NCBI RefSeq assembly: GCF_053078305.1
Contig: NZ_CP166879.1
DNA: 64,000 nucleotides
Strand: one strand, 5' to 3'
Shown: positions 24,345-38,381 of the stretch, one piece after another
Numbering within the stretch: position 1 is the stretch's first letter
Layout of the letters: each line of letters starts with the position of its first letter
The notes under the pieces: generated by a model
Seen by the model: only the letters and a program-made list of their open reading frames with translations
What the model was told of the DNA's origin: nothing
Databases searched by the model: none
Made by a program: the position numbers and the translations under genes

Positions 24345-24789
24345 GAAATGTTCCTTTTCAACCCCTGTTGAATTTTGTCAAGCCGGTGCAGACACAGTAA
24401 AGCGCGCATCAACACCTGAAAGGTACGATACAAACACAAGTTACAAACAATAAGAACGGAAGGACAATTAATCAGTGAGGAATAATAACTAAATTAACCA
24501 AAAGAATGTTACTGACAATACTACCAATACTTAAATAGCAATATATTAATTAATGTAAGAACAGATGCCCGGTAAGACATATACACAATACATCCACAAA
24601 CACACTCTTTTCATTAAATCAATCACCTGATTAAACCATGAAAGTGTGATGTAAGTCAAAATTACTGACACTATCAATTGATAATGATTATCTCTATCAT
24701 TATCGTGAAATTCGAGAATGAAAGGAGAAGTAGTCATTATAAGCCTTTTATAAATCGTCATCATCATAGTAAAGTAGAACACTTTTTAT

Positions 24790-25260
24790 ATGAGTTACTA
24801 TATGAAAATATACTGGACAAGAAAACGCATTCCTGAACTTTCAGCACTTCCACCTTCATTAAGAAAGAAAAATTTTACTGACGCATATAATGCAGCATCT
24901 TCTCATATCGAATACTGGATAGGTGCTGGCGTCTCATTTATCTCGATGATGATTTTATCCAGAGTATATGACTTTCTTTTACCCGCCCAAGATACTTTCC
25001 CGGGTGATATCATCAGAAGTTTATGTGTTGTGTGTCCATCCATATTAATCTGGTTTCAGTTTTCGGTATATGTCATGAGGAAATATTACAGACATATTCT
25101 GGTGCGAGGAAAAGAAACCGAAACCATTTCAGAAAGGTTGATACGTGAGGCTGATACACGAGAATATGAACTATGGCGTCCGGTCCGTCGCTTTTTCTCC
25201 ATTATTTTTCTCATTATTCTATTAGTTTGCATTCATTCACTGATAACAACTATAAAATAA
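24790..25260 (+). CDS. membrane protein, unknown function (microcin island)
   Basis: 156 aa; hydrophobic segments; AT-rich codon usage matching the microcin island. Confidence 0.4.
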   Translation: MSYYMKIYWTRKRIPELSALPPSLRKKNFTDAYNAASSHIEYWIGAGVSFISMMILSRVYDFLLPAQDTFPGDIIRSLCVVCPSILIWFQFSVYVMRKYYRHILVRGKETETISERLIREADTREYELWRPVRRFFSIIFLIILLVCIHSLITTIK

Positions 25261-25357
25261 AAGTTATGGCTGTTCTGATACAGGAAAATAAACGTTCATT
25301 CTATGGTTACCTCTTCCTATTATAGAAGAATTTTAAACGACAAGTAAGGGAATATAA

Positions 25358-26044
25358 ATGGAAATAACAAAAAATAAAAATGCAACTATAAAAAAACAGT
25401 CATCAGTCGGCTGCTTTTCAATGTTTACCTTATCATTTTCTATTACCTTTATTCCTGTATTCCTTACAAACAGGCAGGAACTTATATCCAGGGGACTTCT
25501 TGTTCCAGCATTATTTCTTGCTGAATTTCTAATTCTTGTTCCACTGTATTTTATTTTCTTCCGAAAAAGAGAAGGATTAGGAAGAGGCTCTTTTCGACTG
25601 GATGTTTTTTTTACTCTTTTCTCTTTAATAATGATTATTCAGTTATTTGTCCCTTATCTGCTGGCAGTGAGGAAAACGGAAGAATGGATGATCTCGCAAA
25701 TGTCTTTTTCCGGGGCCATTTTATGGATTAATATATTTTCTTCCGTACTTCTTGTTCCTGTATATGAAGAGATTGTATTTCGAGGGTGTCTTTTTAACTC
25801 TTTTAAATTCTGGTTTAATGACAATATTTACATCTCTGCTATTGTAACATCAGTCATATTTTCTGCATTACATCTACAATATACTGACTTTCGTACATTT
25901 TTGATGCTCTTTCTGATATCGTTAGTTCTTATCAGTGCAAAAATAAAGTCGAATGGCCTGTTAATGCCCATATTACTTCACATGGCGATGAATGCAGTCA
26001 TAACAGGAATACAATATACGTTACAATATCACATAACAGTCTGA
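25358..26044 (+). CDS. CPBP-family intramembrane protease (Abi/CAAX type), McmM/MceF-like
   Basis: 228 aa polytopic protein with EEIVFRG and LLHMAMN motifs; AAGGG upstream of the ATG; such proteins accompany class II microcin and bacteriocin loci. Confidence 0.7.
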   Translation: MEITKNKNATIKKQSSVGCFSMFTLSFSITFIPVFLTNRQELISRGLLVPALFLAEFLILVPLYFIFFRKREGLGRGSFRLDVFFTLFSLIMIIQLFVPYLLAVRKTEEWMISQMSFSGAILWINIFSSVLLVPVYEEIVFRGCLFNSFKFWFNDNIYISAIVTSVIFSALHLQYTDFRTFLMLFLISLVLISAKIKSNGLLMPILLHMAMNAVITGIQYTLQYHITV

Positions 26045-26489
26045 AATTGTTATTATGAGATATCTATAACACCTGAAGTTGGAAAAAGAAGCAAATAATT
26101 CCTTATAAGGGATCGTTTACTAATATATTTAGATAATCTCATATTTGTTTATGATATACATCTGATTAAGATATAATGGATTATAAATTACTCAAAGATG
26201 AACAAATATCTTCGCCTTTTCTCGTAGAAAGAGACTTGAAACTTATAACACATCTATATAAATGTGATTTAAATCACGGTTTGCAGTAAAAGCAATTGGT
26301 ATAATTCATTGGTATTCCTATTATTTTATCTATTGCGCGAACTATTTTACAACAATAAAAAAGATATACAAACAGCAAGAAGTAAAAATATTCGGATAAA
26401 TAAAAACTTTTGCTACCTTGGTTTCTATAGTCTTTATTTCTAAGTTTTTCATAAGCACTCAAAGACTCATGTATAGGGATGGTTTAATA

Positions 26490-26654
26490 ATGAAACTATT
26501 TTTTTATTTCTCGTTGTTCTTTATAATACAACTTATAAATTCAGACTTAGACACATTAACCCTTTATCTTTTCATAAAGAAAATAATTCTTTCGTTACTT
26601 GCGAGTGTACTGTTTTTATTTGTTTTATCTTTCTTTAATAAAAAGAGGAAATAA
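26490..26654 (+). CDS. putative microcin immunity protein (small two-helix membrane protein)
   Basis: 54 aa from the ATG at 26490 (AGGGA upstream); two hydrophobic helices; stop is 1 nt before the precursor start, the usual immunity-then-precursor order. The longer track ORF begins with TTG. Confidence 0.5.
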   Translation: MKLFFYFSLFFIIQLINSDLDTLTLYLFIKKIILSLLASVLFLFVLSFFNKKRK

Positions 26655-36387: not shown

Positions 36388-36456
36388 AATATCTTTTTAT
36401 CGTCCGATAACTCTTTCTGCAATATTATTATGGGAGACTATCTCATTTATTTAGTG

Positions 36457-36492
36457 ATGTCCTTCATTTATGTGATGAAGGACATTATATTA
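36457..36492. terminator. hairpin between convergent mchS1 and mchA
   Basis: Inverted repeat ATGTCCTTCAT / ATGAAGGACAT with a 7-nt loop. Confidence 0.35.
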
Positions 36493-36528
36493 CTCATAAC
36501 ATTTCTCGTTGAAAATTTCAGCAATACG

Positions 36529-37653
36529 CTACAATTGTTTCCCGTTGTTTTTTAATTTTCTCATCAAAACCTCTGCAATCTCTGCAGGACTGGGTTGTTC
36601 AGCCATTTCAGCGGCTACCTGATCTGAACAGAAGCGTAGTGAATCATCATAAAGCAGGCGATTTACCAAATCACTAGTCAGTCCATGCTTGTCCGGAATA
36701 ATCCCACACCCACGCTTCGCAACAATTTCTGCATTAACAGAGCGATCTGCACCTTCGCCAAACACAATCTGTGGTATTCCACTATACAGCGCTGTCAGGG
36801 TATTACCTGCGCCACCGTGATGAATAAATCCATCAGCTCCATTAAGGAATACACCCATAGGTATCCAGTCAACCAGACGTACATTTGATGGTAGTTTTCG
36901 TAAACCAGTACGAGCATTTATTGCAAGTTGCAAAATGATATCAGCATCAACTTCATTTGCAGAATCCATAACCCATGAAATCAGCTCCAGACCATCAACC
37001 ATTGGTTTTACAGTGCCAAGGCTGATAAGTAAACGTTTCCGATCAGAATCCCTGTCCCACCATGTTTCCTTTACAGCACCTCCGTTATAAGGAATATATC
37101 TCATTGAGATAACCGGTTCTCCAGCATTTTTAAGAATGCTCATACTTGGGGGAGCAACATCAATCCATGCTAAATCACATAGTGGACCGCTGACTCCATG
37201 CCGCCTGTAAGCATTGCTTAAAGAACGGTTTAACATCTGAATATGGGCAGATGTATGCGCGAATCCAACAGCCAGCATCACTGAAGGAATTCTATATTTA
37301 GCAGCAACCAATGGGCCTGCCGGACCAAGAGGGGGATAGACTATTAAATCTGGCCTCCATTTTCCTGCAAAATTGATGAGGTTATCTGCCATTTCATCGC
37401 TAAAAAAAGAGAAATGACCAATAATATTACTTTTTTTCCTCAACTCTTCCTGATGGCGATATCCAGCCTCTGAATCTAAACCTGGAACTGCATCAAAAAC
37501 AACCAGTCCAGCTTCTGCTGCTTTATTCGCGAATTTGCCAGCGCTACTAATTACTACATCATGTCCAATTACACGAAAGGCCTGAGCCAGAGAAATCAAT
37601 GGGTATAACAAACCGTACAGCGGTGGGCCAATAAAAAGAATACGTTTTCGCAT
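36529..37653 (-). CDS. mchA: IroB-like glycosyltransferase (MchA/McmL)
   Basis: 374 aa GT-B type glycosyltransferase with C-terminal HHGGAGNT motif; convergent with the esterase gene. Confidence 0.8.
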   Translation of the reverse strand: MRKRILFIGPPLYGLLYPLISLAQAFRVIGHDVVISSAGKFANKAAEAGLVVFDAVPGLDSEAGYRHQEELRKKSNIIGHFSFFSDEMADNLINFAGKWRPDLIVYPPLGPAGPLVAAKYRIPSVMLAVGFAHTSAHIQMLNRSLSNAYRRHGVSGPLCDLAWIDVAPPSMSILKNAGEPVISMRYIPYNGGAVKETWWDRDSDRKRLLISLGTVKPMVDGLELISWVMDSANEVDADIILQLAINARTGLRKLPSNVRLVDWIPMGVFLNGADGFIHHGGAGNTLTALYSGIPQIVFGEGADRSVNAEIVAKRGCGIIPDKHGLTSDLVNRLLYDDSLRFCSDQVAAEMAEQPSPAEIAEVLMRKLKNNGKQL

Positions 37654-38381
37654 TAAAAAAGTCCGTCTTCTGCTTACCTGTTTATTTTTCTATCTCTAAG
37701 AAAACATAATTAATATTATTTTTATGTGAGCTTATGCACAAAAATAACCAAGTATATTATCTTCTGGTAGAGATACAGGATACAGTTTGTAGGAGCTTTC
37801 TTTTTTGAACAATGATTTGCAGGACAGTTATGCTAAACTAGCGGAATCAGTATCACAACAATAAATGACTGTTCATACCTGAAATTTGAATTAACAGGCA
37901 TCATGAATGTCAATAGTCTAAGCGGTGACTACTTATATCGCTTGCATAAATACTAAACACTGACTAGAAAAGTATTGGATAACCCCGTCACTAAAAGTAA
38001 CGCTTCGGTTATTTGCTCGGAATGTATTAACGCCAAGATTGTTAGCCGTTACGCCTTATATCACTGGCGCTGACAAATGTTTCTTTTCTAATTTACTGAA
38101 CCGGCGCAGACACGCAGGAAAGCACGCCGGCACCGGTGTAATGCCAGTTCTAATCAATAAGAATGGAATGACGAATCAGTCAGGAAGGGATAACAACCCG
38201 CTGCTGAACGGAAGGTATCAGCAGGAAGATGAACGGGAATATCGCCAGCACCAAGGGCAGGGCCGGGTTCCACAATACCAGCGCTGGCATTTTGCACATT
38301 GCCAGCGTACCGGCATTACAACACGTTTCATGCTGCTGCCCCCAGGATTCCTCGATTCGTTGCTACATCCACTGCTCTACT

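Follow-up and report, generated by a model that had tools for sequence, protein, structure and literature searches.

Gene content of the microcin island

We analyzed a 64,000-nt stretch of contig NZ_CP166879.1 (NCBI RefSeq assembly GCF_053078305.1), referred to here as the window, with positions counted from its first nucleotide. A preliminary description, made from the letters of the window, had proposed a siderophore-microcin island with three precursor/immunity pairs and a full set of maturation and export genes, and this is borne out by gene content, protein domains and identity to described loci. The interior of the island, between two imperfect direct repeats, occupies positions 24396-37905 (13.5 kb) and holds 16 intact genes. 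These were called from a listing of open reading frames (ORFs) in the 23-39.5 kb section and from gene-by-gene comparison with three annotated Escherichia coli genomes (strains 04-00955, HUSEC2011 and NCTC10444), whose homologous proteins are 98-100% identical to those of the window. NCBIfam has no family for EcWA, EcWI, MchS2, MchI, MchX, MchD, MchC or orf156, and where a family model is lacking, proteins were identified by their close match to named sequences, by gene position and by published criteria.

Precursors of class IIb microcins are recognized by a leader of 15 residues with GG or GA at its end, fewer than two cysteines, a serine-rich C-terminus that ends in serine, and, no more than 200 bp away, an ORF with a transmembrane segment (PMC11634061). 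A six-frame scan of all 64 kb returned exactly three serine-rich, serine-terminated ORFs, EcWA, MchB and MchS2, and each of them has the leader, cysteine count and tail of this class. The microcin H47 (MccH47) precursor gene mchB (32862-33089, minus strand, 75 aa) encodes a protein 100% identical to the RefSeq copies named 'microcin H47' (WP_001375214.1), with the leader MREITESQLRYISGA, no cysteine and the tail SASSSAGGGS. Its immunity gene mchI (33117-33326, minus strand, 69 aa) lies 27 nt upstream, and the exact sequence of its product, which has two hydrophobic spans, is publicly named 'microcin H47 immunity protein MchI'. The microcin I47 (MccI47) precursor gene mchS2, also called mciA (34591-34824, plus strand, 77 aa), follows 16 nt after mchS3 (34140-34574, plus strand, 144 aa), whose product is assigned to MccI47 immunity by NCBIfam NF041432 (MchS3; E = 5.4e-41, above the cutoff). 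MchS2 has the leader MREISDHMLDFVKGG, one cysteine and the tail SSSTSSANSGS. It shares 68 of 77 residues with the product of the last gene, likewise of 77 aa, in the H47/I47/M cluster as defined for NCTC10444 (cluster 1; PMC12999681), and the exact allele of the window occurs on at least 1000 contigs. Relative to that cluster, no gene of the backbone has diverged more than mchS2, which has 93.2% nucleotide identity against 97-99.6% for the others, with nine nonsynonymous and five synonymous codon changes. All three precursors were counted as having a neighboring immunity ORF of the required kind: EcWI and MchI by their hydrophobic spans, and MchS3 by its family, since only an N-terminal signal-like stretch of this protein is hydrophobic and it stays below the Kyte-Doolittle threshold. 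The coordinates first proposed for the three pairs (mchI-mchB, 34140/34591 and 26490/26656) are exact, the second pair being mchS3/mchS2.

The six maturation and export genes named in the preliminary description, mchA, mchS1, mchC, mchD, mchE and mchF, are all present and intact by ORF listing and genome comparison. Export falls to mchF (27040-29142, minus strand; named MchF in RefSeq), whose product is an ABC exporter bearing a C39 leader peptidase at its N-terminus (Pfam Peptidase_C39, 1.5e-39; ABC_membrane, 2e-51; ABC_tran, 1.5e-32) and retains the C39 Cys/His motifs in translation, and to mchE (29135-30409, minus strand), a HlyD-family membrane fusion protein gene (TIGR01843 type_I_hlyD, E = 1e-29) that overlaps mchF by 8 nt; together they supply the C39-ABC exporter and HlyD-type adaptor expected of a class IIb cluster. 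The siderophore-attachment pair, MchC/MceJ and MchD/MceI in the published criteria, is represented by mchC and mchD. MchD (30562-31014, minus strand) is a HlyC-like acyltransferase (Pfam HlyC PF02794, E = 3.3e-11). MchC (31040-32590, minus strand, 516 aa), a distant SelO/kinase-like maturation protein, shares 505 of 516 residues with the protein of NCTC10444 cluster 1, which RefSeq calls 'MchC protein'; the relationship of MchC to SelO has been published (PMC3281104). The glycosyltransferase and esterase of a class IIb cluster would be provided by mchA and mchS1. MchA (36529-37653, minus strand) is IroB-like, matching NCBIfam glycosyltransferase families at E = 1.2e-53 and 7.6e-27, and its homology to IroB has been described (PMC7472721). 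MchS1 (35113-36387, plus strand) is an IroD/Fes-like enterobactin esterase that matches the NCBIfam 'enterochelin esterase' model (E = 7.5e-57) and carries GQSLGG, the serine motif of GxSxG esterases, in its translation; its score of 193 bits lies below the equivalog cutoff of 222, and it is therefore a relative rather than Fes itself.

The original gene list was correct in the genes it named, and missed four. The first, orf156 (24790-25260, plus strand), encodes a conserved hypothetical membrane protein of 156 aa (152 aa from the RefSeq start at 24802) with hydrophobic segments at residues 74-96 and 128-156; it matches no Pfam or NCBIfam family, is identical in 04-00955 and is also found in the MccM-type cluster at 97% nucleotide identity. 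The second (25358-26044, plus strand) is an mcmM-like gene for a CPBP (CAAX-type) intramembrane protease (NCBIfam CPBP families, E = 1e-12), named 'CPBP family intramembrane glutamic endopeptidase' in RefSeq; the gene in this position is called mcmM in the paper describing Ec W (PMC12999681). The remaining two are mchX (33395-33514, minus strand, 39 aa), a small regulatory ORF whose exact sequence is publicly named 'MchX protein', and mchS4 (33739-33984, plus strand, 81 aa), which is identical in the three comparison genomes and belongs to a 90%-identity cluster that includes 'MchS4 protein' Q712P8.

Decay is common in this family of islands, as the truncations in Nissle 1917, CFT073 and 536 illustrate (PMC7472721), and it affects close relatives of the present island as well. 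In NCTC10444 orf156 is frameshifted, while in HUSEC2011 (O104:H4; locus L002, 13257-14455 and 3961-4646) an ISKpn26/IS5 element sits inside mchS2 and the mcmM-like CPBP gene is broken into two parts. MccI47 production, moreover, has been reported only under iron deprivation (PMC3191183), and silent regulatory defects are possible when a locus is viewed through its sequence. The island could on these grounds be an inactive remnant that produces fewer than three microcins, or none at all. Against this stands the state of the window copy: all 16 ORFs are full length, there is no insertion sequence (IS), and the Shine-Dalgarno-like sequence before EcWA, the C39 Cys/His and GxSxG motifs and the terminator-like hairpins are intact. 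We consider the remnant explanation improbable and favor an intact island. Judging by its disrupted genes, the O104:H4 clone should make H47 and Ec W and not I47.

Limits and acquisition of the island

The block is distinct in composition from its surroundings. Its guanine-cytosine (GC) content is 0.393 (24352-37982) as opposed to 0.508 in the rest of the window, and the lowest-GC 13.6-kb segment of the 64 kb is the microcin island, so that the AT-richness claimed earlier is real and the composition of the window is not uniform. The island is bounded by an attL-like repeat on the left (24253-24395) and an attR-like repeat on the right (37906-38113), direct and imperfect, with 80% identity over aligned positions; the right copy contains about 65 bases that the left one lacks. 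Their core consists of 43 nt (24309-24351 and 37983-38025) that are 84% identical. The published H47 genomic island is flanked by imperfect direct repeats of 148 and 144 bp with 76% identity, and has been shown experimentally to excise and integrate although it has no integrase inside (PMC3191183). The arrangement described there, repeats of about 145 bp and about 76% identity with a system of about 13 kb between them, is reproduced in the window by repeats 13.5 kb apart. The limits of 24500-37700 given in the preliminary description thus enclose the right block but leave out the flanking repeats; with these, the island extends from about 24253 to 38113.

Integration at a tRNA gene was considered and rejected, as ARAGORN finds no tRNA in the window. 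No recombinase, integrase or excisionase gene is present among the ORFs between the repeats, all of which are accounted for by annotation and family models. We searched for empty sites with a synthetic query that joins the left flank, the repeat and the right flank, requiring at least 80% coverage within one place of about 625 bp. Homologues of the two flanks, 86-90% identical, are contiguous and uninterrupted by the island in 621 E. coli genomes. In one such empty locus (L007), the sequence switches from left flank to right flank inside the repeat, at the shared motif CCGGYGCAGA, and the gene order runs uninterrupted from an ECs1377-family gene through a 170-aa hypothetical gene to an AlpA-like helix-turn-helix (HTH) regulator.

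An alternative view of the same data is that the low GC merely reflects the composition of small-peptide and membrane genes, and that the block was inherited together with the larger island of type VI secretion system (T6SS) and CP4-like modules in which it sits. The flanking modules are indeed mosaic, with GC dips of their own at 6-10, 12-13 and 46-47 kb, and the island does not encode an integrase. However, the low GC extends to the large enzyme genes (mchA, mchS1, mchC, mchD, mchE and mchF at 0.42-0.46, with third-position GC (GC3) of 0.31-0.44), the block is enclosed by direct repeats of about 80% identity, the contiguous flanks of the 621 genomes meet inside the repeat, and the excision and integration of the H47 island are experimental facts. 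The larger context also varies: the same island lies beside the kps capsule genes in 04-00955, which the flanking modules reach in that strain, and in an island that ends at cadC in the window. Co-inheritance is for these reasons very improbable. Acquisition of the microcin island as a discrete unit, which the preliminary description had proposed, is supported by the GC step, the flanking repeats and the empty junctions: composition, att-like repeats and uninterrupted homologous sites agree with each other and match the published excision of the H47 island. We infer that the island is mobile, a small element without an integrase that is delimited by the two imperfect direct repeats, and that the window copy shares this mobility.

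The third pair encodes microcin Ec W

The pair next to mchF consists of two short plus-strand ORFs. EcWI (26490-26654, 54 aa), with a single hydrophobic span at residues 22-52, ends 1 nt upstream of EcWA (26656-26979, 107 aa), which is preceded by the Shine-Dalgarno-like sequence mentioned above. EcWA has the leader MRNITTDELALIHGA, no cysteine and the tail SSTSSSSSGS. Microcin Ec W was described by Bhattarai, Bucci & Mortzfeld in 2025 in E. coli NCTC10444, at 3367763-3368252, as a 107-aa precursor that follows a 54-aa immunity ORF after 1 nt and is located between mchF and mcmM in reverse orientation (PMC12999681). When cloned, it gives immunity-dependent growth and kills E. coli, Klebsiella, Salmonella, Shigella and some plant pathogens; a class IIb expression system showed its activity when iron was limiting, and EcWI of NCTC10444 protects against Ec WA experimentally (PMC12999681). 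An annotated 107-aa coding sequence in the NCTC10444 record sits exactly at the published coordinates. The window proteins are identical to the NCTC10444 copies at 106 of 107 residues (Ec WA, WP_001390454.1) and 52 of 54 residues (EcWI), and the exact EcWA variant of the window, with G31S, is already public on three contigs (WP_072010583.1). By sequence identity, position, layout and an orientation opposite to mchF, the pair is microcin Ec W (EcWI/EcWA).

The pair occupies a replaceable slot. Aligned by blastn to NCTC10444 cluster 1, positions 23500-26017 (94.2%) and 27055-34838 (97.6%) match and nothing between them does. This gap (26018-27054) delimits a cassette of 1037 bp, which takes the mcmI-mcmA slot of MccM-type islands and replaces a non-homologous segment of 742 bp; one breakpoint falls within the final ~27 nt of mcmM and the other within the final ~15 nt of mchF. 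Queried as window positions 26400-27039, the cassette occurs with at least 99% identity in 116 of 5426 complete E. coli genomes, every copy being chromosomal. Upstream of EcWI lies a very AT-rich non-coding stretch of 445 bp (26045-26489) with palindromic AT-rich repeats at 26243-26272 and 26398-26439. It shows no homology to the MccM cassette and presumably holds the promoter or regulatory region of the Ec W cassette.

A new, undescribed siderophore microcin, and with it a novel three-microcin locus, might be suspected where RefSeq calls the 107-aa product a 'hypothetical protein' and leaves the 54-aa ORF unannotated, where neither ORF has an NCBIfam family, and where full-text searches for the peptide strings or WP_001390454 return no paper, but the idea is refuted by the near-identity of both proteins to the published locus, in which the same pair is named Ec W and has demonstrated activity and immunity, and by the spread of the cassette among complete genomes, and is scarcely credible. 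The novelty of an extra precursor implied at the outset does not hold either: the island aligns over its full length, at 99.6% identity, to the second class IIb cluster of NCTC10444, which already contains Ec W, and is in essence a copy of a described locus with no precursor beyond it. The microcin is nonetheless easily overlooked. In the three RefSeq/PGAP records compared (04-00955, HUSEC2011 and NCTC10444), EcWI, mchX, mchS4 and mchS2 are unannotated, and EcWA and MchC appear as 'hypothetical protein'. With the I47 precursor unannotated and EcWA 'hypothetical', genome mining based on annotation misses two of the three toxins.

Interpretation of the locus

The segment at about 24253-38113 is almost certainly an intact H47-type class IIb (siderophore) microcin genomic island of E. 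coli, in the variant that encodes MccH47, MccI47 and Ec W. The pathway it would specify is taken from the family literature (PMC7472721, PMC3281104), from which expression, chemistry, killing and mobility are carried over to the window copy. The precursors MchB, MchS2/MciA and EcWA would each be made with a 15-residue leader of the double-glycine type and a serine-rich tail ending in serine. Enterobactin produced by the host would be C-glucosylated by MchA and linearized by MchS1, after which MchC (SelO/kinase-like) and MchD (HlyC-like acyltransferase) would esterify the glucosylated siderophore to the C-terminal serine of the precursor. The C39 domain of MchF is expected to remove the leader, and MchF, MchE and the host TolC to export the conjugates. 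Target enterobacteria would then import them as iron-siderophores through FepA, Cir or Fiu and TonB, MccH47 would attack the F0 channel of ATP synthase, and the producer would be protected by MchI, MchS3 and EcWI. Expression is probably repressed by iron through Fur. C-terminal glucosylated enterobactin and killing through catecholate receptors and TonB have been published for H47, M and E492 (PMC7472721).

The sequence offers no contradiction to this interpretation. Several points weigh against it. EcWA differs from the NCTC10444 protein by G31S and EcWI by V16I and L28F, and the I47 allele differs from that of NCTC10444 cluster 1 at 9 of 77 residues. MchC, which matches no Pfam or NCBIfam model, is identified by near-identity and position. 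The right repeat, at 208 nt, is longer than the 144 nt given for strain H47, and the window repeats are equated with the published attL and attR by position and architecture. The empty sites, finally, are paralogous or homologous island modules, 86-90% identical, and lie elsewhere on the chromosome.

Hairpins and iron regulation

Four hairpins in the island were identified by inverted-repeat search and folding; a terminator scan found one of the four. Two occupy convergent gene junctions. Between EcWA and mchF, a bidirectional terminator-like hairpin (26989-27024) has arms of 14 nt with 93% complementarity, preceded by a run of A and followed by a run of T, and folds at -18.8 kcal/mol on the plus strand and -19.7 kcal/mol on the minus strand (z-scores -3.2 and -3.7). 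Between mchS1 and mchA, a hairpin with perfectly complementary arms of 11 nt (36457-36485) reaches -20.4 (plus) and -14.1 (minus) kcal/mol (z-scores -5.1 and -2.9). The other two lie at tandem junctions. The strongest of all, on the plus strand directly after the mchS2 stop codon at the mchS2-mchS1 junction (34825-34859), has a perfect 16-bp stem and a 3-nt loop (-27.5 kcal/mol, z-score -6.3); the last, on the minus strand between mchB and mchC (32808-32851), has 18-nt arms with 89% complementarity followed by a run of U (-14.9 kcal/mol, z-score -4.9). The hairpins noticed earlier at convergent junctions therefore exist, at two such junctions rather than the three that had been counted. Candidates for a third were rejected: the only minus-strand ORFs available, within 26045-26489 and within 34860-35112, are all short and AT-rich and carry no annotation. 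The four hairpins are most simply read as intrinsic terminators or attenuators that follow strongly expressed precursor genes or separate operons that converge. A scan for promoter consensus sequences was uninformative, with 42 sites against 43.5 expected.

A near-palindromic Fur-box-like site is located at 24680-24698, ~90-110 bp upstream of orf156/mcmM. Matched on both strands, it agrees with 17 of the 19 positions of the consensus GATAATGATAATCATTATC; no other site in the 64 kb has three or fewer mismatches, and 0.01 matches are expected by chance. A second Fur-like site, with 14 of 19 matches (33546-33564), precedes mchX by ~32 bp and is consistent with the published mchX Fur box, the sole one named in a review of the family (PMC7472721). 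Iron control of the island is plausible from these sites, and the site at 24680-24698 may place orf156 and mcmM, and possibly EcWI and EcWA with them, under Fur. A broader proposal would hold both that this site defines an iron-regulated orf156-mcmM-EcWI-EcWA operon and that the I47, EcWA G31S and EcWI V16I/L28F variants alter killing spectrum or immunity specificity. We regard it, taken as a whole, as rather unlikely. Were the operon real, orf156 and the CPBP protease would take part in the production or export of the cassette microcin or in resistance to it; were the variants of consequence, toxin diversification would be under way both in the slot beside mchF and at the I47 gene.

Neighboring modules

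To the left of the island is a Sci-1-type T6SS module with Tle1/Tli1, and to the right a CP4-57-like module with YfjI, Ag43 and CbtA/CbeA. The immediate neighbors of the island are a 169-aa hypothetical gene (23835-24344) and, just outside the right repeat, an AlpA/excisionase-like HTH gene (38382-38579), which are adjacent in empty loci such as L007 and co-directional with the ECs1377-family gene. At its 5' end the 169-aa ORF runs into the left repeat, so that insertion of the island may uncouple this gene from its upstream regulator.

The flanking modules show some variation of their own. The window has one copy of tli1 (7097-7774), as opposed to two tandem copies with a period of ~820 bp in 04-00955 (locus L005, 16677-18175), a tandem-duplication polymorphism beside tle1. 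The cadC gene (62119-63657; NCBIfam E = 1e-226) marks the edge of the core chromosome next to the large island, presumably near the pheU neighborhood as in E. coli K-12; homologous modules abut kps genes in 04-00955 instead. Just inside the cadC edge, in the 60600-62100 region, is a 108-aa ORF (60910-61236) that has no NCBIfam family and resembles a ParE/RelE toxin by eye.

Distribution and relation to known microcin loci

Islands of the H47 type have been known since the 1990s-2000s. Their mobility was described in 2011 (PMC3191183), and a name and functional tests for Ec W followed in 2025 (PMC12999681); the island of the window is of an already described type, down to its third microcin. 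It is 99.9% identical to the islands of strains 04-00955 (NZ_CP035498) and VG38-53E1, and 99.6% identical at 100% coverage to that of NCTC10444 (NZ_LR134092) over 13.4 kb. With the 13.4-kb island as the query in a survey of 5426 complete E. coli genomes, 155, O104:H4 included, cover at least 80% of it and 1469 have partial matches; the mchS3-mchS2 module is covered to at least 80% in 145 genomes. The lineage is thus carried by about 3% of complete E. coli genomes, including Shiga toxin-producing and enteroaggregative E. coli (STEC/EAEC) strains and the O104:H4 outbreak clone. The window copy, as a fully intact and self-sufficient three-microcin version, could serve as a clean reference or engineering chassis.

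The closest described relative is the second class IIb cluster of NCTC10444 (NZ_LR134092, 3366631-3378925). Gene order and content are the same from orf156 to mchA, with the Ec W cassette in the MccM slot and both mchA/mcmL and mchS1/mcmK present, and the MchB, MchI, MchS3, MchS4 and MchE proteins are identical. The differences comprise the three Ec W substitutions and the orf156 frameshift given above, one substitution in MchS2, and possibly the chromosomal context. The H47 island itself (E. coli H47, AJ009631; GI-2 of EAEC 042; PMC3191183; Poey et al. 2006), compared through its published description, is likewise a 13-kb, low-GC, integrase-less element with long imperfect direct repeats, and shares mchA, mchS1-S4, mchX, mchI, mchB and mchCDEF. 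Beyond mchF, however, the type island has truncated MccM genes (PMC3191183) where the window has the intact Ec W pair, and the window is set apart by a right repeat that exceeds the left by ~65 nt.

The MccM/MccH47(/I47) clusters of CA46, CA58 and NCTC10444 (cluster 1) follow the same logic of maturation and export, with a shared backbone of 94-98% nucleotide identity as measured on NCTC10444 cluster 1. They carry the 742-bp mcmI-mcmA segment where the window has the unrelated 1037-bp Ec W cassette, and cluster 1 lacks mchA and mchS1, both of which the window has. The truncated islands of Nissle 1917, CFT073, ABU83972 and 536 have homologous mchB, mchI, mchCDEF and mcm-type genes, but lack the I47 pair, the glycosyltransferase and the esterase, and depend on iroB elsewhere in the genome (PMC7472721). 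Unlike these, the window set is complete and self-sufficient except for enterobactin synthesis and TolC.

More distant parallels are found in other genera. The only class IIb microcin reported to be significantly similar to Ec W is Gq W of Gibbsiella quercinecans (PMC11634061), which belongs to a different genus and cluster; the similarity is as reported in PMC12999681. The MccE492 system of Klebsiella pneumoniae RYC492 (mceABCDEFGHIJ) uses the same chemistry, with MceC corresponding to MchA, MceD to MchS1, MceJ/I to MchC/D and MceG/H to MchF/E, and is controlled by Fur through a small X gene, as in the H47 family (PMC7472721). It differs from the island of the window in its toxin, which acts as a pore via ManYZ, in its gene order and in the genus of its host.

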